Shown here: positions 4,758 to 32,886 of the stretch, piece by piece | Layout of the letters: every line of letters begins with the position of its first letter | Numbering within the stretch: position 1 is the first letter of the stretch | Assembly: GCA_036704125.1 (NCBI GenBank) | Contig: DATNQI010000076.1 | Coordinates: forward strand, 27,157 to 91,156 | Direction: 5' to 3' | Source of the DNA: Pantanalinema sp. | GTDB lineage: Bacteria > Cyanobacteriota > Sericytochromatia > S15B-MN24 > UBA4093 | DNA: 64,000 nucleotides | Position numbers and translations under genes: made by a program | Notes under the pieces: generated by a model | What the model saw: only the letters and a program-made list of their open reading frames with translations | The model's database searches: none | Told to the model about the DNA's origin: nothing

Positions 4758-4797
4758 GAGGCCCCCTCGCCGGCGTCGGCGAGGGGGCTGGCTTCTT
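4758..4797. terminator. bidirectional rho-independent terminator between convergent genes
   Basis: Perfect 12-bp stem gccccctcgccg/cggcgagggggc (4761-4772 and 4777-4788) with loop gcgt, flanked by an A-run and a T-rich tract. It sits between the stop at 4748 (+) and the stop at 4796 (-). Confidence 0.55.
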
Positions 4798-5773
4798 AGT
4801 AGACCTCGGTGAACTCGCCCATCCGGCGGTACTTCTGGTACCGGTTCTCAAGGAGCTGCCAGGTGGGGACCCGCATCAGGTCGGCCAGCTGCTCCGAGAG
4901 GGCCGCGGCCAGGTGCTTCGCGCTCAGGACGGGGTCCTTGTGGCAGCCTCCAAGCGGCTCCGGGATGACGCCGTCGATCACCTCGAACGCCATCAGGTCG
5001 CTCGAGGTGAGCTTGAGGATCTCGGCCGCCCGAGGAGCCATGCCGGCGTCCTTCCAGAGGATCGCAGCACAGCCCTCGGGCGAGATGACGCCGTAGTAGG
5101 CGTGCTCGAACATCAGGACGCGATCGCCCATGCCGATGCCGATGGCGCCGCCGCTCGACCCCTCCCCGATGACCACCGAGATGATGGGCGTCTCGAGGGT
5201 GGCCATCTGGGCGAGGCTCTCGGCGATGGCGATGGACTGGCCGCGCTCCTCGGCGGCGATGCCGGGGTAGGCGCCCTGGGTGTCGATCAGGGTGATGATC
5301 GGCATGCCGAACTTGGCCGCGTGCGCCATCAGGCGCTGGGCCTTGCGGTAGCCCTCGGGGTGGGCCATGCCGAAGTTGCGAAGGATGTTCTCCTTGGTGT
5401 CGCGCCCCTTCTGGTGGCCGATGAACATGACGCTCTGGCCCTCGAAGCGGCCGATGCCGCCCACGATGGCCCGGTCGTCGTAGCCCATGCGATCGCCGTG
5501 CATCTCGAAGAATTCCTCGGAGATGGACTGGATGTAGTCCAGGGCGGTGGGCCGCGCCGGATGACGGGCGATCTGGATGCGCTGGAGCGGGGTGAGGCCC
5601 TCGTAGATGGCCCGCCGGATGTTCTGGGCGCGCTCCTCGAGGCGGCGGACCTCCTCGCTCAGGTCCACCTCGCCGGAGCCGGCGAGCTTCTTGAACTCGG
5701 AGATCTTCTCTTCCAGCTCGAGCAGGGGCTGCTCGAACTCCAGGGAAATCGTGCGCTTCTTGGTCTGCGACAT
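4796..5773 (-). CDS. accA: acetyl-CoA carboxylase carboxyltransferase alpha subunit
   Basis: 325-aa protein with the full AccA signature (…IARHPARPTALDYI…GGSSGGAIGIGMGDRVLM…). Confidence 0.95.
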   Translation of the reverse strand: MSQTKKRTISLEFEQPLLELEEKISEFKKLAGSGEVDLSEEVRRLEERAQNIRRAIYEGLTPLQRIQIARHPARPTALDYIQSISEEFFEMHGDRMGYDDRAIVGGIGRFEGQSVMFIGHQKGRDTKENILRNFGMAHPEGYRKAQRLMAHAAKFGMPIITLIDTQGAYPGIAAEERGQSIAIAESLAQMATLETPIISVVIGEGSSGGAIGIGMGDRVLMFEHAYYGVISPEGCAAILWKDAGMAPRAAEILKLTSSDLMAFEVIDGVIPEPLGGCHKDPVLSAKHLAAALSEQLADLMRVPTWQLLENRYQKYRRMGEFTEVY

Positions 5774-5780
5774 GCTGCCT

Positions 5781-6665
5781 CTAATTCCTCACCGCTTCGA
5801 GCTTGCGGACGTGATGCAGGGCGATGAGCTGGCCGATCGTGTCGCGCAGGCGAGGGCGCGGCACGATCTGGTCGATCTGCCCGTGCTTGAAGACCCACTC
5901 GGCCGTCTGGAAGTCGGCCGGAGCCTTCTGGCGGATGGTCGCCTCGATGACGCGGCGGCCCGCGAAGCCGATGATGGCGCCGGGCTCGGCCAGGATGAGG
6001 TCGGCCTGGTTGGCGAAGCTCGCGCTCACCCCGCCCGTGGTCGGGTTGGAGAGGACGCTGATGTACAGGAGGCCCTCCTTGGCGAAGCGCGCGAGCGCCG
6101 CGCTGGTCTTGGCCATCTGCATCAGCGAGAGGGTCCCCTCCTGCATGCGGGCGCCGCCCGAGGCGGCCACCAGCACCAAGGGCAGGCGGCGCTCGATGCT
6201 CTCCTCGACGGTTCGGGTGAGCTTCTCGCCCATCACCGAGCCCATGGAGCCGCCCATGAAGGCGAAGTCCATGCACGCGATGCTCAGGCCGTGGCCGTTG
6301 ATCGTCCCCTGGCCGGTGATGACGCTGTCCCCGTCACCCGCCTTGGCGCGGCTCTCGATCAGGCGCTGGGCGTAGGGCTTGCTGTCCACGAAGGCGAGCG
6401 GATCCACCGAGCGCAGCTGGGTGTGGGTCTCGCGGAACGAGCCGGGATCGAGCAGCTGCAGGATGCGCTCGCGGCCGCCGACCCTGAAGTGGTGGCCGCA
6501 CTTGGGGCAGACGTTGAGGTTGGCGCTAAGGTCCTTGGTGAACAGGGCCTCCGTGCAGGCATCGCACTTGGTCCAGAGGCCGTCGGCCACCTCGCGCTTC
6601 TCGCGATCGGTGTCGACCAGCTGGCCTTTGCGGCGCGCGGCGAACCAGTCCCTTAGTGACGACAT
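5781..6665 (-). CDS. accD: acetyl-CoA carboxylase carboxyltransferase beta subunit
   Basis: Start trimmed to ATG at 6665 (MSSLRDWF), which has a gaaggag RBS. Zn-ribbon CDAC…CPKC and AccD carboxyltransferase domain. Confidence 0.92.
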   Translation of the reverse strand: MSSLRDWFAARRKGQLVDTDREKREVADGLWTKCDACTEALFTKDLSANLNVCPKCGHHFRVGGRERILQLLDPGSFRETHTQLRSVDPLAFVDSKPYAQRLIESRAKAGDGDSVITGQGTINGHGLSIACMDFAFMGGSMGSVMGEKLTRTVEESIERRLPLVLVAASGGARMQEGTLSLMQMAKTSAALARFAKEGLLYISVLSNPTTGGVSASFANQADLILAEPGAIIGFAGRRVIEATIRQKAPADFQTAEWVFKHGQIDQIVPRPRLRDTIGQLIALHHVRKLEAVRN

Positions 6666-6891
6666 GAAAACTCCTTCGCGTATTTCCCCTCGCCGAACGT
6701 CGGCCGCGACGGCCGCCGGAGCCCGGCTGGCGGGCAAGACGCCTCATTATACGCGGGCTCCAGGGGCTTGTACACTCGCACGGCAAGCAAGCTTAATTCA
6801 GGGGTCACGCAACCTTTACTCGCGCTTTACCGGATCCCCGCCCCCTGCGCCGACAAGACGGGTAATGCCGGTTGTTCTTGGAGGGCGCCCC

Positions 6892-8490
6892 ATGGCCGTA
6901 CGTCTCGATTCGATCCAGTCCTACCAGCGCCCCCGCGTGCTGGCCGGCGGCGGCGTGCAGAAGCCCGGGGTCATCCAGATGCCCTCGCCGAACTTCAACG
7001 ACCGTCCCGGCGGCAGCAAGGACATCTCGGCCATCGTCCTGCATCACACCTCGGGCGGCACCCTCGAGAGCAACGCCAACTACTTCAAGAACCCCTCGGC
7101 CGAGGTCAGCTCCCACTACATCGTGGGCAAGGACGGCCGCATCGTGCAGTCGGTCGCCGACGGCAAGCGCGCCTGGCACGCCGGCACCAGCGACTTCAAG
7201 GGCCGCAACGACGTCAACGACTTCAGCCTCGGCATCGAGATCGTCAACTCGGGCTCCGGCAGCGACCCCTTCACCGATGCCCAGTACCGGGGCCTGATCG
7301 ACCTGGTCGCCTGGATGTGCCAGACCTACAACATCTCGCTCGACCGCATCACCGGCCACAAGGACATCGCCCTGCCCCGCGGCCGCAAGAACGATCCGGC
7401 CGCCAACTTCGACTGGAGCCGCGTGCGCGCGGGCGTCGAGGCCAAGCTCAAGGGCCGCTCGGCACCCGCCGCGAGCCAGCCCAAGCCCGTCGCGAAGCCC
7501 GCCTCGGCTTCGGGCGATCAGGGCCTCTACGCCGTCAAGGACGGCGACACCCTCTACGGCATCGCCAAGAAGCAGCTCGGCAACGGCAACCGCTGGCCCG
7601 AGATCTACGACCTCAACAAGGACAAGATCAAGGACCCCAACGTCATCGGCATCGGCATGGCCCTTCGCATGCCCGGCGGCGCCAAGCCCACCACCACCGT
7701 CCAGGGCACCTACACCGTCAAGGACGGCGACACCCTCTACGGCATCGCCAAGAGGCTGCTCGGCGACGGCACCCGCTGGCCCGAGCTCTACGAGCTGAAC
7801 AAGGACAAGATCAAGGACCCCAACGTGATCTACCCCGGCATGGTCCTGCGCCTGTCGGCCGAGAGCGCCAAGCCCGAGGCCCCCAAACAGGAGACCAAGC
7901 CCGCGCCCCAGAAGCCCGAGCCCCCCAAGGCCCCGGACCTGAGCGCCAACCCCATCGGCAAGCTCCCCACGGTGCCCGGCACCCAGCCCTCGAAGCCCGC
8001 ACAGCCCCCGGTCTCGCAGCCAAAGCCTCCCGTCACCCAGCCCGTGGCGCCCGGCGAGGTCGGTCTTTCCGGCGGCCTGCGCATCGGCGGCGGCCTGGCG
8101 CAGAACTACCTGAACTCGCCCATCTCGAGCGGCGGCATCGCGACCGGCGTGATGAAGGGCGGCTTCCTCTACGGCCTCCCCGGCCTGCTCAAGCGCAACT
8201 TCGCGGTCGCCGCCGTCGTCTCGGGCGCCACCAACCTGATGGACTTCATCAAGGGTCGCGTCACCGGCAAGCAGGCGGCCGCCGGCTTCGCCGCGGACAC
8301 CGCGGCCTACACCGGCATCGGCGCCGCCTCGAGCGCCATCGGCGCGGCCGTCGGCAGCGTGCTCGGCCCGGTGGGCACCCTCGGCGGCTTCCTGGTCGGC
8401 AGCGTCGTGGGCCTCGGCCTCGGCTGGGCCTACGAGAAGTTCGGCCGCAGCAAGCTCGTCGGGGCGATCGCCGGCCTCATCGGCAAGTAA
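6892..8490 (+). CDS. N-acetylmuramoyl-L-alanine amidase (amidase_2/PGRP-like) with two LysM domains, Pro-rich linker and C-terminal Gly-rich hydrophobic domain
   Basis: ATG at 6892 has a ggaggg RBS. Amidase_2 motifs (IVLHHTSGG…AWHAG) and two LysM repeats (YTVKDGDTLYGIAK). The C-terminal ~110 aa are homologous to the protein at 17657..18322. Confidence 0.85.
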   Translation: MAVRLDSIQSYQRPRVLAGGGVQKPGVIQMPSPNFNDRPGGSKDISAIVLHHTSGGTLESNANYFKNPSAEVSSHYIVGKDGRIVQSVADGKRAWHAGTSDFKGRNDVNDFSLGIEIVNSGSGSDPFTDAQYRGLIDLVAWMCQTYNISLDRITGHKDIALPRGRKNDPAANFDWSRVRAGVEAKLKGRSAPAASQPKPVAKPASASGDQGLYAVKDGDTLYGIAKKQLGNGNRWPEIYDLNKDKIKDPNVIGIGMALRMPGGAKPTTTVQGTYTVKDGDTLYGIAKRLLGDGTRWPELYELNKDKIKDPNVIYPGMVLRLSAESAKPEAPKQETKPAPQKPEPPKAPDLSANPIGKLPTVPGTQPSKPAQPPVSQPKPPVTQPVAPGEVGLSGGLRIGGGLAQNYLNSPISSGGIATGVMKGGFLYGLPGLLKRNFAVAAVVSGATNLMDFIKGRVTGKQAAAGFAADTAAYTGIGAASSAIGAAVGSVLGPVGTLGGFLVGSVVGLGLGWAYEKFGRSKLVGAIAGLIGK

Positions 8491-8498
8491 AAGTCGCT

Positions 8499-8542
8499 CC
8501 AAGTAAAAGGACGCCTCCGCTCGGGGGCGTCCTTTTACTTGG
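8499..8542. terminator. strong bidirectional terminator (17-bp perfect stem)
   Basis: ccaagtaaaaggacgcc (8499-8515) and ggcgtccttttacttgg (8526-8542) with a 10-nt loop. It lies between the convergent stops at 8490 (+) and 8544 (-). Confidence 0.6.
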
Positions 8543-8543
8543 A

Positions 8544-9503
8544 CTACTCGATCACTTCCAGCGAGGCCGTGCTCACCAGGCGTCCTGAGCGGACCGAAAG
8601 GATGGCCGAGCCCGTGCCCGTCGCGGTGAAGACGGTGCTGGAGCCCGTCGCGGGGAAGAAGGTGCCCTCGGCCGGGAGGGTCGCCCCGCTCTGATCCGCC
8701 GTCAGCAGGGTCCACTCCACGTTGGGCGCGGGCTCCGGGCCAGCCGAGGAGCTCGCCGAGACGCTCAGGGCGATCGGCTGGCCGAGCGTCACCGCCCCGG
8801 GGAACGGCGCGATGGCCGAGAGGGCGCTGAGCGTCCAGAAGGCGCCGCTCGGCTCGCTCGGCACCCCGTCCACCCGGACCACGATGCTCCCGCTCGCCAC
8901 CCCCTCGGGCACCGTGACGCGCAGGCGCTCCTCATCGACCCGGTACAGGCCCGGAGCCTCGAGGCCGTCGAAGGTAACCGAAACGGGCTTGTTGGCGGCC
9001 GCCCCGAAGCCGCTGCCCACGAGCTCGATCGTCGCCCCCGGGCCTGCGTTGAGGGGATACGCGCTCAGCGCCGGGACGAAGCGCGGCGCCAAGTGCACGG
9101 CAAGCGGCTGCCGCTGGTTGACCTTCACCGACGCGGTGGCCGCCCCCTCGGCCACCACGTCGAAGTCCTGGTAGGCCTTGACCTCGACCCGCAAATCATC
9201 ACCGGCGGGCACCGCCAGCTGCGCCTGGCTGGTCTGGTTCCCCGCGGCCTTCTCGAGGTCGTGCGACACCAGCAGCGAGGCATTCGCATCCAGGACGCGC
9301 ACCCGGATCAGATTGGCGCTGTAAGGGATGAGCTGGATCTGGCGCGGCCAGCGCACGGTGATGACCAGCTGGCCCATCGCGGCCGGCGCGTCGGCCGCGG
9401 GCCCGTCGCCCGTCGCCGGGCTCAGCGCGCGCAGGGCAGGCGAGGCGCAGGCGCAAAGGAGCAGGCACAGCGTCGAGGCGGCGATGGGACGGACAAGGCG
9501 CAT
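8544..9503 (-). CDS. lipoprotein with Ig-like N-terminal domain and IPT/TIG domain
   Basis: Signal peptide and lipobox (LLCAC). The N-terminus (GQLVITVRWP…) resembles the N-terminus of 3231..4748. An IPT-like segment follows (PGATIELVGSGFG…VSVTFDG). Confidence 0.7.
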   Translation of the reverse strand: MRLVRPIAASTLCLLLCACASPALRALSPATGDGPAADAPAAMGQLVITVRWPRQIQLIPYSANLIRVRVLDANASLLVSHDLEKAAGNQTSQAQLAVPAGDDLRVEVKAYQDFDVVAEGAATASVKVNQRQPLAVHLAPRFVPALSAYPLNAGPGATIELVGSGFGAAANKPVSVTFDGLEAPGLYRVDEERLRVTVPEGVASGSIVVRVDGVPSEPSGAFWTLSALSAIAPFPGAVTLGQPIALSVSASSSAGPEPAPNVEWTLLTADQSGATLPAEGTFFPATGSSTVFTATGTGSAILSVRSGRLVSTASLEVIE

Positions 9504-9517
9504 GGCTACCGGGCCTC

Positions 9518-10141
9518 CTAATCGATGACGAGATCAAGCAGGCCATCGGCCTTGACCGTGACGGTGACGCTCGCGGTGCGATCGGGGTCTCGGCGCGCGG
9601 CGGCCGTGACGCGCACCGTCCCGACCTGCCGGGCGCTCACCAGCCCGCCCGCGACGGTGACTGCCGGGCCGCTCACGCTCCAGCTCACGTCGTGATCGGT
9701 GCTCCCGTCGCCGTAGCGGACGGTGGCGACCAGCTGAACGGACGAGGGCAGGACCCCCACCTGGTCGGGATCCGCCGGGGGCAGGTTCAGGGTCGCCTCG
9801 CCCGGCGTGAGCGTCACGGTGCTCACGGCGACGGTGGGGGCCGGGGTCGGGGCGCGCGTGGGGGTCGGGCTCGGCGCGGGCGAGCCGGTCTCGGTCCCGC
9901 CCCCCACCTGCACCGGGGTGGGCGTCGGCGCGGGCGTCACGAAGATCGGGGTGGGCGTCGGCGCCGGCGTGCGGATCGGGGCAACGGTCGGCTGCGGGTC
10001 CTCGCTCGGAGCGACGTTTCCGGCCCCCGGCGCGAGCCCCGTCGTCGTGACGGGGTCGTCGGCCGGGCAAGCCGCGAGGAGGGCCGCGATCGCCACGATC
10101 GCGAGGCCCCATCCGAACCGAACCCTGCTGCTCGTCACCAC
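9518..10141 (-). CDS. lipoprotein with Pro/Thr-rich linker and Big_2 domain
   Basis: Lipobox LLAAC, a PTPTP low-complexity linker and a C-terminal Big_2-like fold. Confidence 0.6.
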   Translation of the reverse strand: MVTSSRVRFGWGLAIVAIAALLAACPADDPVTTTGLAPGAGNVAPSEDPQPTVAPIRTPAPTPTPIFVTPAPTPTPVQVGGGTETGSPAPSPTPTRAPTPAPTVAVSTVTLTPGEATLNLPPADPDQVGVLPSSVQLVATVRYGDGSTDHDVSWSVSGPAVTVAGGLVSARQVGTVRVTAAARRDPDRTASVTVTVKADGLLDLVID

Positions 10142-10147
10142 GTCGCC

Positions 10148-12757
10148 TCAGTAGGTCGCGCCGTAAACCCGGCCCGCGTTCGAGCCGGGCGGCAGGGCCC
10201 CGGTAAGCGCGCGGTAGAACACCTTGATGGTGCCGCCCGAGACGGCGCTCGTCGCACCCGCACCGCCGTCGCCGCCGGGAAAAATCGAGAACCCGCCGCT
10301 GTCGATGGCGGCAAAGGAGCCGTTTGCGCCGTTGGCGCCGCCGCGCGCGTCCATGGTGCCCTGCAGGGTCACCTGAGGGGCCTGCAGCACGATCGAACCG
10401 CCCGAGCCCCCCCCTCCGCCGCCGGAGCCTGGGGTGTTGTTGGCCCCGCCCCCGCCGCCCGCTGCCCCCACGACGATGAGCTTGGCCGTGTTCGCGACGC
10501 TCAGGGCGCTTCCCGCCTTGAGGACGATGGCCCCGCCGCCGGCTCCTCCGCCGGCACCGGCCGTGTACTCCCCGGCGCCGCCGAGCCTCGCGGCGTTCCC
10601 GCCCGCGCCGCCCGAGCCCAGGACCCAGCTCGCATCCGTCGAGACATCGGCCGAGGGCAGGTAGGATCCCGCCGGACCGCCCTTCCCGTCCTCGGCGATG
10701 GCCAGGGTCCCGGGCGCCCAGCCCAGCCCGCGCGTCGCAGCGCCGAAGACGCCGCCTCCCGTGCCACCGGCCCCGCCGCCGCCCCGGCCCGCGCTGCCGC
10801 CCGATCCGCCGCCGCCCGCGCCATAGCCCGCCGCGCCGGTGCCACCCCCGTTGTCGTCATAGCCGCCCAGGCCGCCACCGTAAGGGGCGGCCCCGCCGGC
10901 GCGCGTGGGGATGGCCAGGGGGCCCCAGCTCGGGTTGCCGTAGGCTTCGCCGCCCGCCGTCGTCGCATCGTTCCCTGCCGAGGCCGTCGCGACGGGGCCA
11001 TCGGCGCCCCCGCCGCCCGCGCCGCCGAAGTAGCCGCCGCGACCGCCCGCGCCCGAGACGCAGCCTCCGCCGCCGGCCGCCCCGTAGCCGAGGCCGCCGC
11101 TGGTGAACCCGCCGTTGCCCGAAAGGCCCGCGACGCCGCCGCGACCGTACTCGGCCGTGATGGAGCCGCCGGGGCCGCCGCCGTAACCGCGCCCCGCCCC
11201 GTCGATGGTGCCGTTCACGGTGATGGTGTTGGCGTAGAGACCGAGCCAGCCGTCCTTGGGGGAGCGGACCCGCTGATCGTACATGGAGGCGCCTTCCCCG
11301 ATGGCGTCCGCCCTTCCGAAGGGCTGCACGTAGGTCGTCGTCCCGTTCGCGATCGAAACCGTCTCGAAGTAGTGGTTGCCGAAGAACTGGGTCTTGTTGC
11401 TGCCTGCCGGGAAGTTGACCGAGTAGCCCGCGTCCGAGGCGTTGCGCACCCCGCTGGTCGTCGCCCCGTCCCAGGAAGCCCCCTCGGCCACCTGGACCCC
11501 GTCGCTGATGACGGTCGTCCCGTTCCCGGTCGCGAGCACCGGCGTCACGCTCACGTAGTAGGTCGCCCCCGCCCAGGCCCCCGCCAGGCTGAGGGCGTCC
11601 GTCCGGCAACTGGTGCCCAAGCCCACGGGCCGGTCGGCCATGACGTCGCCGGCGCCGGGGGTCGTGCCGACCCGCACCACGTAGCCCGACGCGTTGGGAT
11701 TGGCGCTCCAGTTGGCGTAGAGGTAGCCCGCGCCCGAGGTCACCGGGCTGTACTGGTAGGCGACGTCCACTGCCGCCGAGGTGGTGCCGTCGTTGACCTT
11801 GAAGGGCGAAACCGTGAAGGCGGGCCCCTGGTAGACGAGGCTGCCCACCTGGACGGTGACGGCCCCGGCACCGAGCCCGCGCATGGACACGTCGAGGCGG
11901 GTCGGCGAGGCGCTCGTGACCACGCCGGGCACCCCGTTGAACTTGACCACGTTGTTGGCGGGCGTGGGATCGAAGCCCACGCCGAGCAGGGTCACGCTCG
12001 CGCCCTCCATCAGGGCGGCGAGGGACGATTGGTCGGTGACCTTGGGGCCGCCCGTGATCCGGAAGCGTCCGGTGGCGCTCTCGTAGGCCACGTCGCCCAG
12101 AGGGTCGCGGTCCTGGGCGATGAGCGCGTCGACCAGAGGAAGGACGGCGGCGTACTCGGCGACCGAGCAGTTGGTCACGGGCGAGAAGACGTCCGGGGCG
12201 CCCGTCACCACGCGGCCGATCAGGCTCGCGGGGCTCACCTGCAAGGCGGGCGCGAGGGCGGCCTTGAGGCCCGCGATGATCGAAAGAGCCGTGCTCGATC
12301 GCCCGAGCATGATGCTCGACCCCGTGATGCTCTGCCACGTCCCGTCCGCGTGGGAGAGCACGGTGCGAAGGGCCGCGGTGTTGCTGCCCGCCTGGTTCCC
12401 GTTGAGCCCCTTGACCGCTTCGAGGTAGTAGGGCTGCTCTCCCGGCACGAAGCCCGGGATGCTCAGCGAGAAGGCGCCGGTCGTCGGGTCGGTGACGGCC
12501 GAGGCGATGGTGCGGTTCTGGGTCGGATCGATCAAGGAGACGGTGGCGGCGAGGGTCACGTCAGCGAGTGCCGCCTGCGTGGTGCGCCCGAGGGCGGCAG
12601 GCTCCACCCGGCCGCTGAGCGTCACGGCCTCGCGCGCCGCGGGCATTGGCAGCTGCGCGCTCGGCGTCGTGGCCGGACGGATGCAGCCGGCCAGGAGCGC
12701 CAGGACGATCGCGAGCGACAGCGCCAGGCGCCGCAGGGCATCAGTAGGTGGCCGCAT
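10148..12757 (-). CDS. large lipoprotein paralog B: CarbopepD_reg-like, IPT/TIG and FN3-like domains, then ~350-aa glycine-rich (PGRS-like) C-terminal region
   Basis: 869 aa with lipobox LLAGC. Domains are recognised by eye. The C-terminus is Gly/Ala tracts interspersed with short hydrophobic strands and ends …GGTIKVFYR…AGRVYGATY. It overlaps the upstream paralog stop by 17 nt. Confidence 0.7.
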   Translation of the reverse strand: MRPPTDALRRLALSLAIVLALLAGCIRPATTPSAQLPMPAAREAVTLSGRVEPAALGRTTQAALADVTLAATVSLIDPTQNRTIASAVTDPTTGAFSLSIPGFVPGEQPYYLEAVKGLNGNQAGSNTAALRTVLSHADGTWQSITGSSIMLGRSSTALSIIAGLKAALAPALQVSPASLIGRVVTGAPDVFSPVTNCSVAEYAAVLPLVDALIAQDRDPLGDVAYESATGRFRITGGPKVTDQSSLAALMEGASVTLLGVGFDPTPANNVVKFNGVPGVVTSASPTRLDVSMRGLGAGAVTVQVGSLVYQGPAFTVSPFKVNDGTTSAAVDVAYQYSPVTSGAGYLYANWSANPNASGYVVRVGTTPGAGDVMADRPVGLGTSCRTDALSLAGAWAGATYYVSVTPVLATGNGTTVISDGVQVAEGASWDGATTSGVRNASDAGYSVNFPAGSNKTQFFGNHYFETVSIANGTTTYVQPFGRADAIGEGASMYDQRVRSPKDGWLGLYANTITVNGTIDGAGRGYGGGPGGSITAEYGRGGVAGLSGNGGFTSGGLGYGAAGGGGCVSGAGGRGGYFGGAGGGGADGPVATASAGNDATTAGGEAYGNPSWGPLAIPTRAGGAAPYGGGLGGYDDNGGGTGAAGYGAGGGGSGGSAGRGGGGAGGTGGGVFGAATRGLGWAPGTLAIAEDGKGGPAGSYLPSADVSTDASWVLGSGGAGGNAARLGGAGEYTAGAGGGAGGGAIVLKAGSALSVANTAKLIVVGAAGGGGGANNTPGSGGGGGGSGGSIVLQAPQVTLQGTMDARGGANGANGSFAAIDSGGFSIFPGGDGGAGATSAVSGGTIKVFYRALTGALPPGSNAGRVYGATY

Positions 12758-15344
12758 AGACCCTCCCTGCCGTCGTCAGCGTCGGCATCGCCCCGATGAA
12801 GCTACGGTAGAAGACCTTGACGGTCCCGCCGGTGAGCGCGCTCGCCCCGCCGTTGCCGCCGTCACCGCCGGGCCCGCCCGCGACGGGATTGCCGGTTCCG
12901 CCTCCCGTGCCGCCCAGGCAGCTCACGACGCCCGAGAGGTCGATCGTCCCGGCATCCATGAGGATCGTCCCCCCCGATCCTCCTCCTCCGCCGCCGCCCG
13001 AGGGCGAGTTGTTGGCGGCACCACCTCCGCCGGCCGCCCCGACCGCGATCAAGCGCCCCGAGACGGTCAAGGTCCTGGCCTTGAGGATGATGGCCCCGCC
13101 ACCTGCCCCCCCGCCGCCGCCCGTCGTACGCTCGGTCGTCATCTGGACGCCCGGGTTGCCCCCGGCCCCGCCGGACCCCAGGACCCAGGAGCGATCCGTG
13201 GTGGTATCGGGCGAGGGCAAGTAGCGGCCGGCGGGCCCGCCCAGCCCGTCCTGCGCCTTCGCCAGCACCCCGGGCTCCCAGCCGAGCCCGCGCGTGGCGC
13301 CGAGCGAGTAGCCGCCGCCGGTGCCGCCGGCGCCGCCGCCGCCGGCGTAGGTCGTGTTGCAGCCGCCGACCCCTCCGCCACCGCCCGCCCCGTAACCGGA
13401 GCCGCCGCTCCCGGGCGAGTTGTCGACGCGGCCGCCGGATCCGCCGCCGTACGGCAGGGCCGCGACGGGAGGAAAGGTCGGCGAGCCGGTGATGCCGCCC
13501 TGGCCCGTCGCGTCGCTGCCGCTGCCGCCCACCACCGGCCCGACGGCCCCGTAGCCGCCGTTGGCCCCCGCGCCGGCGCCGCCGAAGTAGCCGCCGCGCC
13601 CGCCGTTGGAATCCCCGAGGCAGCCGCCTCCCTGGCCGCCACCGCCCGCCGCCCCGAAGCCCAGGCCGCCGAGGCCCGCGCCCTCGGTTCCCCCGTTGCC
13701 CGAGAGGCCTCCGATCCCGCCGTGGCCGAAGGTGGCCACGCTGTCCGAGGCCGTCAAGCCGGGTCCCCCGCCGTAGCCGCGCCCGGCCGCGTCGATGGCC
13801 CCGCTCACCGTGAGGGTGTTGGCGTAGAGACCGAGCCAGCCGTCCCTGGGGGTGCGGACCCGCACGTCGTTCATGGAGGCGGCCTCCGTGATGTTGTCCG
13901 CCTTGCCGAAGGGCTGCACGCTCACCGTGGCGTTCGAGGGGATCGAGACCGTCTCGAAGTAGTGGTTGCCATAGAACTGGGTCTTGTTGCTGCCCGCCGG
14001 GAAGTTGGCCGAGTAGCCCGCATCCGAGGCGTTGCGCACCCCGCTGGTCGTCGTCCCGTCCCAGGAGGCCGCCTCGGCCACCTGGACCCCGTCGCTGGTG
14101 ACGGCGGTCCCGTTGCCGGTCGCAAGCACCGGCGTCACGCTCACGTAGTAGGTCGTCCCCGCCCAGGCCCCGTCCAGGCTCAAGCCGGTCGCCTGGTAAT
14201 CCGTCACGGCGCCGACCGACACCTCGGCCTTCACGTCGGCGGCCCCCGGCGTCTTGCCGATCCGCAGGCGGTAATCCGTGGCGTTCGGGTTGGCGCTCCA
14301 GTTGGCGTAGAGATAGCCCGCCCCCGCCGTCACCGGGCTGTACTGGTACAGGTTGTCCACCCCGATCGAGCGGGTGCCGTCGTTGAGCGCGAAGGGCGAA
14401 ACCGTGTAGGGCGGCCCCTGATAGATGGTGCTTCCGACCTGCACCGTGACGGTCCCGGCGCCGAGCCCGCGCATGGAGACCGTGAGGCGCGTCGGGGTCG
14501 CGGCGGTGACGACGGCACTCGCCCCGTTGAACTTGACGGTGTTGTTGGCCGGGGTGGGATCGAAGCCGCTGCCCTCGAGGATGACGCTCGCACCCTCCAT
14601 CAGGCCGGTCAGGGGCGAGGTGGACGTGATCCCGAGCCCCGCGTTCAAGAGGAACCTGGCGTTCGCCGTGTCGTAGGCGATCGCCCCGAGGGGATCGAGG
14701 TCCCGCGCCAGGGCCGCGGCGACCACCTCGCGGGCGCCGTCGAACTCGGGCCCCGTGCAGTTGGGGATGGGCGAGAAGACGTCGGGCGAGCCGGGCGCCA
14801 GGCTCCCCAGAAGCGCGCTCAGGGCCGGGCGCTGGGGAGCGGGGAGAGCCTGCTTCAGGCTGACGATCGCGCACAGGGCGGTGGTCGAGAGGCCGAGGCG
14901 CACCGGCCCCGGCTGGGAGTTGGTCACCGAGCGCCACCCGTCGCCTTGCGCCGCGATCGCGGTGCGCAGGCGCGCCACGCGCTGCCCCACCCGGTTGGAG
15001 CCCAGGCGCTTGAAGGCCTCGAGGTAGTAGGTGGCGCTGCCCGGCTGGAAGCCGCCGTAGTAGAGGGCGAAGGCGCCGTCCGCATCGGTGGTCGCGGTCG
15101 CCACCGTGCGATTGGTCGCAGGGTCGATGAGCACGACCGTCGCGGCCTGGGCCACCTCCGCGGCCTGGGCCTGAACCTCGCGGCCGAAGGCATCGAGCTC
15201 CACGCGGCCCCGGATGACCGCGGCGGCGGCCTCGCTCGTCGCAGGCGCCGGGCTTCCCGCGTGCGGGAGGGGCGCCCCGAGGCAGCCCACCAGAAGAAAG
15301 AGACACAGCGCGAAAACCCACTGTCTGGAGCGTCGCATCCTCAC
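12741..15344 (-). CDS. large lipoprotein paralog A (same architecture as 10148..12757)
   Basis: 867 aa with lipobox LLVGC and the same domain order. The conserved C-terminus reads …GGTVKVFYR…AGRVYAATY. DNA segments are ≥90% identical to paralog B. Confidence 0.7.
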   Translation of the reverse strand: MRMRRSRQWVFALCLFLLVGCLGAPLPHAGSPAPATSEAAAAVIRGRVELDAFGREVQAQAAEVAQAATVVLIDPATNRTVATATTDADGAFALYYGGFQPGSATYYLEAFKRLGSNRVGQRVARLRTAIAAQGDGWRSVTNSQPGPVRLGLSTTALCAIVSLKQALPAPQRPALSALLGSLAPGSPDVFSPIPNCTGPEFDGAREVVAAALARDLDPLGAIAYDTANARFLLNAGLGITSTSPLTGLMEGASVILEGSGFDPTPANNTVKFNGASAVVTAATPTRLTVSMRGLGAGTVTVQVGSTIYQGPPYTVSPFALNDGTRSIGVDNLYQYSPVTAGAGYLYANWSANPNATDYRLRIGKTPGAADVKAEVSVGAVTDYQATGLSLDGAWAGTTYYVSVTPVLATGNGTAVTSDGVQVAEAASWDGTTTSGVRNASDAGYSANFPAGSNKTQFYGNHYFETVSIPSNATVSVQPFGKADNITEAASMNDVRVRTPRDGWLGLYANTLTVSGAIDAAGRGYGGGPGLTASDSVATFGHGGIGGLSGNGGTEGAGLGGLGFGAAGGGGQGGGCLGDSNGGRGGYFGGAGAGANGGYGAVGPVVGGSGSDATGQGGITGSPTFPPVAALPYGGGSGGRVDNSPGSGGSGYGAGGGGGVGGCNTTYAGGGGAGGTGGGYSLGATRGLGWEPGVLAKAQDGLGGPAGRYLPSPDTTTDRSWVLGSGGAGGNPGVQMTTERTTGGGGGAGGGAIILKARTLTVSGRLIAVGAAGGGGAANNSPSGGGGGGGSGGTILMDAGTIDLSGVVSCLGGTGGGTGNPVAGGPGGDGGNGGASALTGGTVKVFYRSFIGAMPTLTTAGRVYAATY

Positions 15345-16327
15345 CTCCCGGTCTCCACGCCGCCCGCCACGACGCCCGTGACCGTGAAGACGGGCCCATC
15401 GATCGACAGTCCCCCGATTTTCAGGCCGACCCGGCCGCTGGTGGCGCCTGCCGGGACGGTGGCGACGAGGGTCGTGGCGCTCACGGAGTTCACGAAGGCG
15501 CTCACGCCGTTGAAGGTCACCGAGTTGCTCGCGGGCGTCGGCAAAAAGCCCGAGCCTATTACGGTCACGAGCGTGCCCACGCTCCCGCTCGCCGGGCTCA
15601 CGCTCGCGAGGGTCAGGGGCTGGTTCACCTGGACCCAGGCATCCGGCAAGACCAGTCCGACGCCGGCGACCGGATCCAGGTCGGCCGCAAGCGCCTGTTT
15701 GACCAGGATCAGCAGCGCGTCGAAATCCTGTCCCGACACAGCGGCGGCCGGCGCGTAGCTCGCGGACGCCCCCGGGGTCACGCGCCCGATGAGCGAGGAG
15801 AAGTCGAGGGGGGCGGGGTTTTCGTTGCGCAGGGCCGCCCCGATGGCGAGCGCCGTGGTCGCCTCGTCGACGACGATGCCCTGGTTGGGCACGGTGTTGG
15901 TGAGCGACATCCAGCCCTTGTTGTACTTGACGAGGGTGCGCACGCGCGCCGCCTGGTGACCCGGCATGTTGGAGGCCAGGCCCTTCACCGCCTCCAGGTA
16001 GTAGGTGGCGGCCGGATCGGGCTTGAACGAGCGGGGGAACGTCAGCTGGAAGGATCCGCTCGCGGTGGTCAGGCTCGTGACGACGGTGACGTTGAGCGCG
16101 GCCTGGATCAAGGAAACGGTCGCCGCGTCCGCCACCTGACCGATCTCGGCCTGCACGCGGCGCTCCGGGAAGGACACCCTTCCGGAAAGCGGCTCGCTCG
16201 TTTCAGGCGCGCGGACGGGACTCGCCTGGCAAGCCACGAGCAGGAGCGCGAGAAGGCCGGCGCCGAGCAGCGCGCGGCGCGGCTTCCCCTCGAGGCATCG
16301 ATGCCGGAACCATCCGAAGGCGGCCAT
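15341..16327 (-). CDS. truncated paralog: N-terminal CarbopepD_reg/IPT module only
   Basis: 328 aa with lipobox LVACQ. Homologous to the first ~330 aa of the two large paralogs. ATGA overlap with the downstream gene at 15341-15344. Confidence 0.65.
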   Translation of the reverse strand: MAAFGWFRHRCLEGKPRRALLGAGLLALLLVACQASPVRAPETSEPLSGRVSFPERRVQAEIGQVADAATVSLIQAALNVTVVTSLTTASGSFQLTFPRSFKPDPAATYYLEAVKGLASNMPGHQAARVRTLVKYNKGWMSLTNTVPNQGIVVDEATTALAIGAALRNENPAPLDFSSLIGRVTPGASASYAPAAAVSGQDFDALLILVKQALAADLDPVAGVGLVLPDAWVQVNQPLTLASVSPASGSVGTLVTVIGSGFLPTPASNSVTFNGVSAFVNSVSATTLVATVPAGATSGRVGLKIGGLSIDGPVFTVTGVVAGGVETGR

Positions 16328-16446: not shown

Positions 16447-17520
<1,074 letters not shown>

Positions 17521-17589
17521 ACCGCGCTGGTTCTCCTTACTCAACATGCGCCGAGACCCCTAGATTCTGGCACATCACGGCCATTAGAG

Positions 17590-17656: not shown

Positions 17657-18322
17657 CTACTGGGCCGGGGGAACGGTGGCGGGCTGGGTGGCCTGGCTGT
17701 TCATGCCCTTGGCCGAGGCCATCATGCTCTGGATGCCCTGCTGGACCTGACCCGAGAAGCTGGTGCGGACCTTGTCCTCGTAGAATTTGCCGAGCAGGAG
17801 GCCGACGCCGGCGCCTGCCGCGATGCCGAGGGCGGTGCCCAGGAAGGGGATGGGGATCAGGCTGCCGATCATCCCGCCGATGGTGGTCGAGGCGGCGCCG
17901 ATGCCCGTGTAGGCGGCGGTGTCGGCGATGAAGTTCCCGGCGGCCTGCATCGGCTTGACCTTGCCGGTCATCATCTCGTAGAGGTTGCTGACGCCCGAGA
18001 GCAGGGCCGAGATGGCGAAGTTGGACTTGAGGGCGCCGACGAAGTTCTTGAGGCCGCCGCTCAGGGTCCCCCAGATGCGGCTACCGATGCCGCTCGAGAA
18101 GGTCATGCCGCTCGCGGCGTTGGCGACCATGCTGGCGCCGACGGCCTCGGTCCGGGCGCCTTCCGCCACGGTCTTGGCGATCTTGAGCGTGTCGAAGGTC
18201 TTGATCACGGGCGCTGCCATCCGCATGCCGGCCATGTTGTCGGTGTTGGCCGCAGGCAGGAAGGCCTTGGCCTTGGCGGCCATCGTGCTGGTCAGGTTCG
18301 CGTTGTTGCTCTGAATCGCCAT
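17657..18322 (-). CDS. hypothetical protein sharing a Gly-zipper-like hydrophobic domain with the C-terminus of the LysM amidase
   Basis: 221 aa, low Arg content (real-looking in a high-GC genome), with an aaggagg RBS. Residues ~75-180 align with amidase residues ~420-525 (NFA[IV]…ADTAAYTGIGAAS…LG…GLG…YE). Confidence 0.6.
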   Translation of the reverse strand: MAIQSNNANLTSTMAAKAKAFLPAANTDNMAGMRMAAPVIKTFDTLKIAKTVAEGARTEAVGASMVANAASGMTFSSGIGSRIWGTLSGGLKNFVGALKSNFAISALLSGVSNLYEMMTGKVKPMQAAGNFIADTAAYTGIGAASTTIGGMIGSLIPIPFLGTALGIAAGAGVGLLLGKFYEDKVRTSFSGQVQQGIQSMMASAKGMNSQATQPATVPPAQ

Positions 18323-18527
18323 CGTGGGCCTCCTTGGTCAGTGACCAACCGCAGGGTGTTTTTCCTTCACACCCCTCTTATCGGGGGGTGGGGGAGGCAA
18401 TTCGGTAAAGAAGAGCCTAAGACATGCGTAAGTCGGGTCTAAGGTTTTAAATCCAGATCAAATCGGCGCTCGCGCCGTTGCTTGACACTCCGTTTCTCGT
18501 TCAGCTATCATCAGCCTCACGCCGCGT

Positions 18528-18601
18528 TGGGGAGTAGCCAAGTGGTAAGGCATCGCTCTTTGGAAGCGACTACCGTAGGTTCGATTCCTACCTCCCCAGC
18601 C
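18528..18601 (+). tRNA. tRNA-Gln(TTG): tRNA-Gln (anticodon TTG)
   Basis: Cloverleaf built by hand: acceptor TGGGGAG/CTCCCCA, anticodon stem TCGCT/AGCGA with loop CTTTGGA, T-arm GTAGG-TTCGATT-CCTAC. It starts UGGGG and ends CCCCAGCC like E. coli tRNA-Gln. Confidence 0.85.
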
Positions 18602-18725: not shown

Positions 18726-19103
18726 TCAAGCGGGCAGAATCGCCACCTCGTAATGCCGGAAGCGCTCGTCTCGACTGACGAGCACCATCTCCTCCGCCTG
18801 CGCCTGCGCTATCAGCATCCGATCGAACGGATCGTCATGATGTCGTGGTAACGAGCCGGCCCGCAGAGCGTGAGCCCAGGCGATCGGAAGCGGCTCGAAC
18901 CCCCCTTCCTCCAGCGCCCCTATCAGCTCACCGGGGATATCCAGCTTCCCGATCGCTTGCTTGATGGCGATCTCCCAGACGCTGGCGGCGCTCAGGAATA
19001 CCTGATTCTCGCCCTTGGAGATCGCCTCGCGGGCCGCCCTCGAAAGGGTGGGATCATCCGCCAACCACCACAGCAGGGTGTGGGTGTCCAAGAGCAGCTT
19101 CAA
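18726..19103 (-). CDS. vapC: type II toxin-antitoxin toxin, PIN domain (VapC family)
   Basis: 125 aa. The N-terminus MKLLLDTHTLLWW and acidic PIN residues are typical of VapC. It overlaps the antitoxin stop by 4 nt. Confidence 0.88.
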   Translation of the reverse strand: MKLLLDTHTLLWWLADDPTLSRAAREAISKGENQVFLSAASVWEIAIKQAIGKLDIPGELIGALEEGGFEPLPIAWAHALRAGSLPRHHDDPFDRMLIAQAQAEEMVLVSRDERFRHYEVAILPA

Positions 19104-32882: not shown

Positions 32883-32886
32883 TGTC

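Follow-up and report, generated by a model that had tools for sequence, protein, structure and literature searches.

The C-terminal part of a LysM-bearing amidase and a free-standing protein of 221 aa, both encoded in a 64,000-nucleotide stretch of a Pantanalinema sp. contig (the whole stretch is hereafter called the window), are, as judged from their sequences, copies of one homologous domain of ~105–110 residues. This module defines a domain family with clear boundaries and invariant residues for which Pfam and NCBIfam have no model at threshold. Our preferred reading, to which we assign a probability of about 0.4, is that the module may be a hairpin which inserts itself into the membrane, oligomerises there and anchors or exports wall hydrolases that have no signal peptide, with the free-standing protein as its partner.

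Features of the amidase and free-module locus (positions are those of the window)
Feature	Position	Strand	Basis and remarks
accA and accD (acetyl-CoA carboxylase carboxyltransferase subunits)	4796..6737	-	ORFs; mark a conserved housekeeping locus
Amidase gene	6892..8490	+	532 aa; exact protein deposited as HEY9899927.1
Amidase N-terminal 28 residues, ending ...RVLAGGG, before the catalytic domain	6892..6975	+	Alignment on the [VM][QLA]AG[GM][GR] motif
Amidase_2 catalytic domain (residues 43–170)	7018..7401	+	Pfam PF01510, E 1.6e-36, 125.9 bits
LysM domain 1 (residues 213–261)	7528..7674	+	Pfam LysM, one of two stretches
LysM domain 2 (residues 274–322)	7711..7857	+	Pfam LysM, best stretch 274–321; E 3.1e-22 for the protein
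Pro/Lys/Gln-rich spacer (residues 323–387), TonB-like composition	7858..8052	+	Sequence
GEVGLSGGLRIGGG motif and Gly-rich stretch into the module (residues 388–424)	8053..8163	+	Aligns with GMRMAAP / IRMGTP of free-standing proteins
Three-helix glycine-zipper module in the amidase (residues 425–528)	8164..8475	+	Profile match; BLASTP against the 221-aa protein; AlphaFold2; hydropathy
~8 kb block of lipoprotein and IPT/TIG-domain genes	8544..16327	-	ORFs; Pfam TIG
MalK/MsmX-type ABC ATPase gene	16447..17547	-	Pfam ABC_tran, OB_MalK and TOBE_2
Free-standing module protein gene (P0001; V6D00_12185)	17657..18322	-	221 aa; identical protein in NCBI MAG
Three-helix glycine-zipper module in the free-standing protein (residues 90–198)	17729..18055	-	Profile match E 6.8e-48; invariant residues; hydropathy
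N-terminal 40 residues of the free-standing protein, MAIQSNN... and GMRMAAPV motif	18203..18322	-	Family alignment; N-terminal alignment

By BLASTP with composition-based statistics, amidase residues 398–526 align with residues 61–193 of the 221-aa protein at 42% identity and 58% positives (E = 9e-22), the identity spanning 135 residues. The Smith–Waterman score of the pair is 229, as against 45.9 ± 8.1 for full shuffles (z = 22.6) and 59.4 ± 11.7 for shuffles inside 10-residue blocks, which preserve local composition (z = 14.5); the highest shuffle score was no greater than 107. Common descent is opposed by the notion that we are seeing a compositional artefact of two Gly/Ala-rich hydrophobic tails, a notion prompted by the make-up of the module (17–20% Gly, 13–18% Ala) and by the ease with which composition can produce short glycine-zipper matches: the 29-residue zipper peptide of EsxX, the only part of that toxin compared, scored 3.8–6.1 bits, no better than some of its own shuffles (0 ± 1.5, maximum 7.5). 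We give it almost no credence, as the BLASTP and shuffle tests refute it: the E-value was obtained despite compositional adjustment, the z-score is still 14.5 when local composition is kept, the conserved residues include the non-glycines K, N, D, T, Y, E and R, and the family has 54 recovered members, with 62 library representatives at E ≤ 1e-10. The initial annotation had noticed both reading frames and found their alignment convincing by eye; the pairwise alignment it proposed bears this out, and the z-scores lie far from the value near 0 that it had named as the mark of compositional bias. The motifs it quoted (NFA[IV]SA, ADTAAYTGIGAAS and YE) are all present, several of them on invariant columns of the family alignment. 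The similarity begins somewhat further upstream than the boundaries it gave (residues ~420–525 and ~75–180), and a short GLRIGGG / GMRMAAP motif ahead of a Gly-rich stretch is common to both proteins in the family alignment. A tblastn search of the window returned these two copies of the module only.

The module opens with an amphipathic helix in which Lys, Asn and Ser are conserved; two glycine-zipper helices follow, joined by a Pro-x-Pro (or Gly-Pro) turn. The zipper hairpin, ~44 residues long, is capped at both ends by an invariant Tyr and is followed by Y-E-x3-R. Invariant positions, in the numbering of the 221-aa protein, are N113, G120, D134, Y138, T139, G142, G149, G153, G162, G166, G178, Y181 and R186; the last six of the glycines, together with the nearly invariant G170, form an extended (G/A/S)xxxG zipper in hydrophobic helices, and a D-T-x-x-Y-T motif is likewise invariant. 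Mean Kyte–Doolittle values in the 221-aa protein are 1.82 for helix 3 and 1.07 for helix 2b, a hydropathy close to that of the transmembrane helices of lambda holin S105, and the segment KFYEDKVR then follows. AlphaFold2 run on a 65-sequence alignment gave three helices with a mean pLDDT of 71.4 and a pTM of only 0.37, and a search with this model found no structural neighbour; the three helices were predicted twice, in two AlphaFold2 runs. For the whole 221-aa protein (32 sequences) the pLDDT was 49.6, and therefore only its secondary structure was used. The Gly/Ala-rich character and small-xxx-small spacing described in the initial annotation are both found here. Its suggestion of a glycine-zipper membrane or oligomerisation segment agrees with sub-threshold matches to zipper families in Pfam and with the S105-like hydrophobicity, while membrane insertion and oligomerisation themselves we infer from the sequence pattern.

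An exhaustive profile search of a 1.84-billion-protein library, which returned 414 representatives at E ≤ 1e-3, was required to make the family visible; the amidase module alone, compared with a word-indexed collection, retrieved one fragment. Close relatives were found only in metagenome-assembled genomes of Candidatus Sericytochromatia, where several paralogues occur per genome, either as free-standing proteins or as modules placed behind signal-less LysM wall enzymes. Three kinds of unit precede the module, namely Amidase_2, a DUF1287/NlpC-like enzyme and LysM by itself; LysM and a Pro-rich spacer, 65 to 150 residues long, are present in every case. The search for this domain on other cell-wall hydrolases, suggested beforehand, was thus answered positively. 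No family member has a signal peptide, with start codons fixed by upstream stops and conserved N-termini. Weak Pfam matches were obtained to DUF1269 (PF06897) in 23 of 32 members (best E 4.5e-6) and to Gly-zipper_Omp (PF13488) in six of 32 (best E 7e-5); the 221-aa protein scores 19.9 bits against DUF1269, short of the gathering cut-off of 26.9, and the amidase module matches neither model. These repeated weak matches place the likeness in the second and third helices, but the first helix and the D-T-A-A-Y-T motif fall outside their coverage and all scores lie below the gathering cut-offs. NCBIfam has no model for the module family, and a sequence-profile search of the PDB returned marginal glycine-zipper matches only (an OmpA-family protein, E 0.014; the tape measure protein 9ki1_g, E 0.003). 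The literature searched held nothing on this module family or on Sericytochromatia wall biology.

The amidase shows no hydrophobic signal-like stretch at its N-terminus, which begins MAVRLDSIQ in the orthologues as well, unlike the product of the adjacent gene (8544..9503), which carries a canonical lipoprotein signal. Its first 28 residues align, through the [VM][QLA]AG[GM][GR] motif, with the free module proteins and with module-less amidase paralogues, and are thus a possible leader or targeting segment. The catalytic domain covers profile positions 3–130 of 131 in PF01510 (cut-off 26 bits) and contains the motifs HHT (in VLHHTSGG, from ~residue 49), GHKD (~153–158) and NDP (~166), which we presume to supply the zinc ligands as in AmpD and T7 lysozyme. 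PHROG endolysin families match this domain at E 1e-35 to 1e-43. The best named match is the NCBIfam AmpD equivalog (NF008758; 128.1 bits, E 2.5e-37). An assignment to AmpD was rejected, the score being below the curated cut-off of 143 and the protein having 532 aa with LysM, spacer and module rather than being a cytoplasmic single-domain protein of ~185 aa. Among relatives of the catalytic domain, P0219, with a Sec signal, is 59% identical and PG_binding_1 fusions 54–56%, compared with 43% for the cytoplasmic AmpD of Pseudomonas; that the exported and wall-binding versions are the closer ones points to action on the wall. LysM (PF01476) is matched at 78.7 bits (cut-off 20.9) over two stretches. 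The spacer is the fastest-evolving part of the protein (34–47% identity between orthologues) and varies in length; the region of the GEVGLSGGLRIGGG motif that follows it recurs in other hydrolase fusions.

Free module proteins are 190–250 aa long, with long Gly-rich N-terminal halves in which GMRMAAPV is nearly invariant (R34, P38). Orthologues of the 221-aa protein have an in-frame stop 12–40 codons upstream of the start, and a hidden signal peptide is therefore not possible. An amidase paralogue lacking both module and signal peptide also exists (P0208/P0210), and its N-terminus, MAMGFNSINTASL, recalls those of flagellins. Flagellar-type export was considered and set aside, this paralogue lying outside any flagellar locus and the searched literature offering nothing on Sericytochromatia flagella. 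A double-glycine leader with a PCAT exporter stays a speculation: the hydrophobic spacing is a misfit by eye and no C39-ABC gene was seen.

Family members occupy two conserved housekeeping loci, accD/accA–MalK and pth-prs-glmU-rsgA. In five other genomes (loci L006 and L008–L011) a single ATPase gene lies between the gene for the free module protein and that for the amidase fusion, next to accD/accA; the proximity of the free copy to the amidase, remarked upon in the initial annotation, is thus a conserved gene neighbourhood there. Synteny of the ATPase gene holds in L004, L006 and L008–L011, and accA/accD adjoin the amidase fusion also in L004 and L006. The window locus is otherwise the same as L006 and L008–L011, the sole difference being an insertion of ~8 kb, peculiar to this genome, that sets the amidase apart from the genes for the ATPase and the free module and is missing from that position in those five; a block homologous to it adjoins another family member in L002. 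Its importer-type OB/TOBE domains and lack of a membrane domain led us to reject the MalK-like ATPase as a functional partner, and it is probably merely a neighbour. Between genomes, identity is 68–79% for the module, 73–85% for MalK and 68–88% for accD/accA, so the module changes at roughly the same slow pace as the housekeeping genes around it. No conserved immunity-like gene stands beside the Sericytochromatia members in the loci compared, no secretion-system genes occur in the window or in the related loci fetched, and no phage genes or lysis cassette lie near, the surroundings being accD/accA, a sugar-type ABC ATPase and a tRNA, the only RNA element found with Rfam. Searches around the two genes showed neither a terminator nor a notable promoter. 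We rejected a phage origin, there being no relative of the Sericytochromatia family in IMG/VR viral contigs and no phage genes nearby, and also a defence system, for which the sole match was weak (PADLOC PDC-M09B, E 1e-3).

Beyond these close relatives, the distant significant matches to the full module are C-terminal domains of LXG, RHS, PAAR, DUF4280 and WXG100-type proteins. In the 1.84-billion-protein library the LXG protein P0116 is matched at E 1.1e-10 over profile positions 6–97, and the RHS proteins P0170 and P0182 at E ~1e-6; hhalign gave a probability of 99.8 for alignments A2 and A4, of which A4 had itself been selected using A2. The LXG relative belongs to a classic T7SSb cassette with a polytopic immunity-like membrane ORF directly downstream. 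The strongest outside relatives are C-terminal toxin domains of LXG/RHS proteins rather than holins, of which the initial annotation had been reminded. The same kind of helix-turn-helix glycine zipper is present in the LXG toxins TelE, EsxX and TspA, in the Rhs/T6SS toxins Tse5 and Tse4 and in CdzC/D, and the C-terminal zipper domains of TelE and EsxX depolarise membranes (PMC10434224, PMC12744356). PDB profile searches matched no entry for EsxX, TelE, TspA or Tse5-type toxins; the likeness seen to characterised toxins is one of zipper type, and it is in uncharacterised LXG/RHS proteins that the extreme C-terminus shows significant homology to the module over its full extent. Polymorphic toxins have a trafficking domain and an immunity gene, whereas the window proteins, in which Pfam detects no LXG, RHS, PAAR or WXG domain, have neither and are core and slowly evolving. 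Matches of the hairpin only, at E 1e-2 to 1e-6, were obtained to PHROG profiles of unknown-function, tail (tail-lysin, tape-measure) and ‘endolysin’ type, and weak hairpin matches also to P0130 (TMP_3) and P0188 (Hydrolase_2). Phage tape-measure and tail-lysin proteins resemble the amidase fusion in joining a glycine-zipper hairpin and a wall-hydrolase domain in one polypeptide, but only the hairpin half matches, at marginal E-values, and these virion proteins are very long and work on the cell from outside. Neither the 221-aa protein nor the module sequences match PHROG lysis or holin families.

We suggest that the hairpin may insert into the lipid bilayer, its two ends staying on one side, and pack with other copies via its Gly faces, and that in Candidatus Sericytochromatia a toxin-type module may have become a slowly evolving chromosomal gene family. 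Inserted into the cell's own cytoplasmic membrane, the module would either bring signal-less LysM hydrolases to the peptidoglycan independently of Sec or tether them there: the Pro-rich spacer would bridge the gap to the wall, LysM would hold the wall, and the amidase would cut stem peptides from the glycan. The free-standing paralogue would be the likely co-oligomerising partner, holin-like or regulator-like. By analogy, and with the same tentativeness as the reading itself, the logic may be that of phage endolysins with C-terminal transmembrane domains and of holin–endolysin pairs, here owned by the host. Lysis of E. coli by M4Lys of Salmonella phage BSPM4 depends on the enzyme's C-terminal transmembrane domain but on neither a holin nor Sec (PMC7143992), and the Enc34 endolysin and LysAP of Acidovorax phage AP1 are further endolysins of this type (PMC8943055, PMC8879335). 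Like these, the amidase and its orthologues are wall hydrolases with no signal peptide, followed by a C-terminal hydrophobic domain and a charged tail. The comparison is one of architecture and not of sequence. The M4Lys-type enzymes belong to phage lysis cassettes, their catalytic folds differ and each has a single predicted helix, whereas the amidase is chromosomal and syntenic, with LysM, a long Pro-rich spacer, a three-helix module and free-standing paralogues. Holin–endolysin pairs likewise combine a small membrane protein (here a predicted one) that has a charged C-terminal tail with a signal-less wall hydrolase encoded nearby, but here the hydrolase itself also bears the membrane module, the surroundings are not those of a phage, and no PHROG holin is matched. 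A mechanistic, non-sequence precedent for zipper-assisted translocation of a fused domain is the T6SS DNase Tde1, whose glycine zipper permeabilises membranes and is needed to carry the fused enzyme across (PMC10240207); in Tde1, unlike the amidase, the zipper is N-terminal, transport is into the target cell's cytoplasm, and the process is T6SS-dependent. Of the endolysin/holin or autolysin-anchoring logic originally proposed, the part that stands is thus the hydrolase fusions, the conserved neighbouring free copy and the endolysin precedent; the phage context, the PHROG holin and the IMG/VR relative that would go with it are absent.

Several considerations weigh against the preferred reading. 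With a hairpin, the N-terminal enzyme stays on the side where it began, so that export of the ~420-residue folded part would need a pore or a flip. The existence of the module-less, signal-less amidase paralogue means that the module cannot be the sole export device, and true targeting could lie with the shared N-terminal motif instead. A protein that permeabilised the membrane constitutively would, moreover, have to be under regulation; we saw none, and this counts against the reading. In a further-reaching version, Sericytochromatia would have turned a toxin-type pore module to house-keeping, Sec-independent export and anchoring of their wall hydrolases, in which several signal-less enzymes with the leader-like AGG(G) motif, with or without a module in cis, would need the free proteins as a built-in, non-lytic, holin-like gate. 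We regard this version as improbable.

Because the wider superfamily is used as toxin, a role against other cells is the natural alternative and the main rival, though in our judgement an unlikely one. The free proteins would be pore-forming, bacteriocin-like glycine-zipper toxins and the amidase fusion a bacteriolysin that binds and cuts a competitor's wall and then depolarises its membrane, both exported by a pathway that would recognise the shared N-terminal segment. Signal-less proteins with Amidase_2 and peptidoglycan-binding domains can indeed be secretion-system effectors, as is AmpDh3 of P. aeruginosa, and the leader-like motif ending in AGG(G), common to free proteins and to fused and module-less amidases, would fit such a role, as would the number of paralogues per genome, the C-terminal toxin kinship with its one T7SSb cassette, and the depolarising activity of the TelE and EsxX zippers. 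Against it stand the conserved housekeeping loci, a module as slow as housekeeping enzymes and not diversifying, and the lack of an adjoining immunity-like gene at any Sericytochromatia member, of secretion-system genes in the window or fetched loci, and of LXG, RHS or PAAR trafficking domains on the window proteins. The hairpin topology, which would keep the N-terminal enzyme on the side of its synthesis, and the missing signal peptide would also suit an AmpD-like recycling amidase tethered to the inner membrane on its cytoplasmic face, perhaps close to a muropeptide permease, with LysM binding incoming muropeptides and the free paralogues being unrelated small membrane proteins that share the fold. 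Wall-binding-type domains do occur on cytoplasmic proteins (Kbp/YgaU of E. coli, which has LysM, and CwlM of mycobacteria), and AmpD is both the best named match and, in Pseudomonas, 43% identical. We hold such an anchor to be quite unlikely, however: the AmpD score is below its curated cut-off, closer relatives have a Sec signal or PG_binding_1, two LysM domains with a Pro-rich spacer of this length are typical of envelope-spanning proteins, the same module is borne by an NlpC-like/DUF1287 enzyme and by LysM alone, and an anchor does not account for the conserved presence of a free module gene alongside.

The definition of the domain family stands whatever its physiological role, and since LXG, RHS or PAAR toxins account for many of the distant relatives that were examined, the module profile can be used to annotate such toxins. 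Should the preferred reading be true, a whole bacterial class would be using on its own membrane a domain familiar chiefly as the lethal tip of contact-dependent toxins, in order to place wall-cutting enzymes that have no classical export signal. It would link holin–endolysin lysis, endolysins with C-terminal membrane domains and glycine-zipper toxins, which are usually treated apart; the house-keeping gate, if that version were true, would amount to a means of translocating proteins, common to the whole lineage, for which cell-wall maintenance offers no described parallel. For the Sericytochromatia, non-photosynthetic relatives of the cyanobacteria, the module would then offer an entry point to the biology of the cell envelope.

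The C-terminus of the amidase and the small free-standing protein, both deposited proteins of the NCBI metagenome-assembled genome, share a Gly-rich domain of about 105 residues, hereafter the module. BLASTP with compositional adjustment aligned residues 398-526 of the amidase to 61-193 of the small protein (42% identical, E 9e-22). The Smith-Waterman score of 229 stood against 45.9 +/- 8.1 when whole sequences were shuffled (z = 22.6) and 59.4 +/- 11.7 for shuffles within 10-residue blocks (z = 14.5), far from the z near 0 that would have spoken against the observation. Thus the similarity, originally picked out by eye, is real rather than an artefact of composition alone. The accompanying reading of the larger protein as an Amidase_2-LysM enzyme was confirmed by Pfam (Amidase_2 at residues 43-170, two LysM domains). 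For the 221-aa protein the only Pfam match was a sub-threshold DUF1269 and NCBIfam gave none; no third module copy was found within the window. Long 'shadow' ORFs that overlap the amidase gene in other frames and on the opposite strand, together with an upstream extension to 6379 that is antisense to accD (6379..8715 in all, both strands), were rejected as high-G+C products rather than genes.

Features of the window and their coordinates
Feature	Position	Strand	Remarks
accA/accD	4796..6737	-	
Amidase_2-LysM-module gene	6892..8490	+	532 aa
N-terminal motif region, amidase	6892..6975	+	
Shadow ORFs (rejected)	6768..8588; 6805..8715	+; -	
Inserted block	8544..16327	-	~8 kb
Lipoprotein gene	8544..9503	-	in block
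Two paralogues, 867/869 aa	10148..12757; 12741..15344	-	60% identical; in block
IPT/TIG protein	15341..16327	-	328 aa; in block
MalK-like ATPase	16447..17547	-	
Free module gene (MAIQ-type)	17657..18322	-	221 aa
N-terminal motif region, free protein	18203..18322	-	
Promoter-like site	18482..18511		TTGACA-18-TATCAT, near consensus
tRNA-Gln	18528..18601	+	anticodon TTG; divergent from 221-aa gene
PIN-domain (VapC-like) toxin	18726..19103	-	just past tRNA
CusCBA-like heavy-metal RND operon and two P-type ATPases	28423..34167; 46165..48606; 48610..51255	-; +; -	joint coordinates

The amidase begins with a 28-residue segment without any hydrophobic core, followed by the Amidase_2 domain (His/His/Asp-type motifs present), the LysM domains, a TonB-like Pro/Lys/Gln-rich spacer of 65 residues, a short GLRIGGG motif with a Gly-rich stretch, and the module. 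In the 221-aa protein a conserved MAIQSNN... start, a nearly invariant GMRMAAPV and a Gly/Ser/Ala-rich stretch precede the module, and a Gln/Pro-rich tail follows it. Two AlphaFold2 runs gave the module three helices (full protein, pLDDT 49.6, used for secondary structure alone; module with 65 sequences, pLDDT 71.4, pTM 0.37), and Foldseek returned no structural neighbour of the module model. Helix 1, which is amphipathic, has K, N, S and N conserved; an invariant D-T-x-x-Y-T opens helix 2, the rest of which is a glycine zipper. The turn after it is Pro-Ile-Pro (in the amidase, Gly-Pro), and a second zipper helix then ends in Y-E-x3-R, about 44 residues separating the two invariant tyrosines. 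Kyte-Doolittle means of the hairpin arms (1.07 and 1.82) are close to those of the three lambda holin S105 helices in the same computation. The glycine-zipper, hydrophobic character proposed in the initial annotation therefore stands, while its membrane placement is a prediction: a helical hairpin that would enter the bilayer from one side and keep both its ends there.

A word-indexed search recovered 54 relatives, nearly all 190-250 aa and all from metagenomes or MAGs, while scanning a single genome for each species gave 11 loci, seven labelled Candidatus Sericytochromatia and the others 'bacterium' or 'Stenomitos'. Several paralogue types occur per genome: free-standing proteins with MAIQ, MAGISG or MSQVNA starts, LysM-module and Amidase_2-LysM-module proteins and, in some, an additional DUF1287/NlpC-like-LysM-module protein, so the suspected joining of the domain to wall hydrolases does recur in other genomes. 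A signal peptide is absent from every paralogue type examined, and in-frame stops upstream of the starts leave no room for a hidden one; the product of the gene adjoining the amidase differs in carrying a classic lipoprotein signal. NCBI assigns the source MAG to Pantanalinema sp. (Leptolyngbyaceae), a filamentous cyanobacterium. Given the window's G+C of 69%, and that every close relative of both genes belongs to a MAG of Candidatus Sericytochromatia or of an unclassified 'bacterium', this label is probably wrong and the genome a sericytochromatian one. Five metagenomic proteins of ~430-510 aa (P0077, P0080, P0091, P0096, P0098) carry the module mid-protein, between a long Ala/Lys-rich helical N-terminal region (start MAGIPQIGGDSQ...) and a Pro/Gln-rich tail. 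Another, P0089 (523 aa; JGI contig, 30.6 kb), combines an N-terminal transmembrane helix with a good module copy (E 1.1e-16); its gene lies inside a locus of Tad-pilus type that also encodes TadB/C-like T2SSF proteins and a TadE-like one.

The neighbourhood of the pair is conserved. In five loci from other genomes (L006, L008-L011) a free MAIQ-type gene is followed by the MalK-like ATPase, the amidase-LysM-module gene on the other strand, accD and accA (retrieved sequence stops short of accD in L010 and L011). The window differs from this order only by the ~8 kb insert of lipoprotein and IPT/TIG-domain genes, present in this genome only among those compared; the 9 kb gap between amidase and free gene is therefore derived, and the neighbourhood is otherwise tight. 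In another genome a homologous block (30-38% identity; L002, 1..7769) adjoins a different module-family gene, P0044, and the two co-locations may reflect chance or a functional link. A second syntenic locus, beside pth-prs-glmU-rsgA-rlmN-rsmB, holds a MAGISG-type gene, or an MSQVNA-type gene and then a LysM-module gene. In L004 the gene upstream of the free module gene (5995..7614) encodes a 539-aa LysM protein that has acidic helical repeats but lacks the module, and the retrieved stretch holds no amidase fusion. Between the window and six other genomes, identities were 68-79% for the module of the free protein, 73-85% for the MalK-like ATPase, 68-88% for accD, and 66-72%, 53-72% and 34-47% for the amidase catalytic domain, module and spacer, respectively. 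Judged by these identities, the module is constrained to the same degree as housekeeping enzymes. Elsewhere in the window, the RND operon encodes an AcrB-family protein of 1046 aa and a CusB-like fusion protein that includes a heavy-metal-binding domain; it also encodes an outer-membrane factor, which marks the organism as diderm. Of the two P-type ATPases that follow, one has HMA domains.

Module-less, signal-less amidase paralogues occur in the same MAG (P0208, catalytic domain 85% identical) and in another genome (P0210). Next in similarity of the catalytic domain come a planctomycete protein that has a normal Sec signal (59%), PG_binding_1 fusions from myxobacteria (54-56%) and only then cytoplasmic AmpD (43%), and the amidase scores under the cut-off of the AmpD equivalog model. 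Together with the LysM domains and TonB-like spacer, this favours action on the sacculus rather than in cytoplasmic recycling. Over their first 20-35 residues, free module proteins, fused amidases and the module-less paralogue (window regions in the table; P0208, P0209, P0210) align on [VM][QLA]AG[GM][GR], perhaps a leader or targeting signal that they have in common. On its separate contig of the same MAG, the module-less paralogue has an N-terminus that looks flagellin-like (MAMGFNSINTASL...); no flagellar locus was found around it.

When 1.84 billion representatives were searched exhaustively with a profile, 414 proteins matched at E <= 1e-3, 62 of them at E <= 1e-10. Pfam domains among 81 longer matches included delivery and toxin domains (LXG, 6; RHS repeats, 5; DUF6861, 4; WXG100, 3; PAAR; DUF4280; T7SS signal domain), a tape measure domain, and wall-related domains (LysM, 7; Amidase_2; CHAP; Hydrolase_2; DUF1287; Amidase_6). 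LXG and RHS proteins carry the module at their very C-terminus; the alignment runs from helix 1 through the whole of helix 3 and keeps IG..[IL]GS.IP.P.[VL]GT..G and the upstream Asp. The gene of one LXG relative belongs to a T7SSb cassette of typical make-up, in which DUF4176 and two small genes precede it and a 195-aa polytopic membrane ORF follows. Membrane depolarisation by glycine-zipper C-terminal domains is documented for the LXG toxins TelE and EsxX (PMC10434224, PMC12744356). The 29-residue EsxX zipper, the only EsxX/TelE sequence compared, scored inside the range of its own shuffles, and PDB profile searches with the module found none of TelE, EsxX or Tse5. IMG/VR contained no relative of the Sericytochromatia family. 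Among phage proteins, PHROGs of tape-measure, tail-lysin and long 'endolysin' type gave matches, as did one solved tape measure protein, but these were marginal and covered the hairpin part only.

As the best-supported reading we suggest, with a probability of roughly 0.4, that the module inserts itself into the membrane as a hairpin and self-associates, that Sericytochromatia would apply it to their own cytoplasmic membrane for tethering or exporting signal-less wall hydrolases, and that the neighbouring free paralogue would be the co-assembling partner. Precedents are the M4Lys phage endolysin, whose C-terminal transmembrane domain is needed for holin- and Sec-independent lysis (PMC7143992), and Tde1, in which a glycine zipper carries a fused enzyme across the membrane (PMC10240207). 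The weakest point is the crossing of the membrane by the ~420-residue N-terminal part; and since a module-less paralogue exists, something besides the module in cis must be able to bring about this crossing.

The main rival, that the whole set consists of secreted antibacterial proteins, draws on the kinship to toxin domains and the common N-terminal motif ending AGG(G), but core synteny and slow evolution speak against it, as does the lack of a polytopic or other conserved immunity-like gene beside the Sericytochromatia members in the loci examined; we consider it unlikely. Less probable still is a cytoplasmic anchor or recycling role, which agrees with the hairpin topology but accounts poorly for the LysM domains and spacer, for the other enzymes joined to the module and for the conservation of fused and free genes as a pair.

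Amidase_2 and LysM domains, glycine-zipper hairpins, endolysins with C-terminal membrane domains and glycine-zipper toxin domains are all known kinds. What is new is a defined three-helix family, captured by no curated model, that forms a conserved multi-paralogue chromosomal family within one bacterial class, is repeatedly fused to signal-less LysM hydrolases, and has its fused and free copies kept as a pair.
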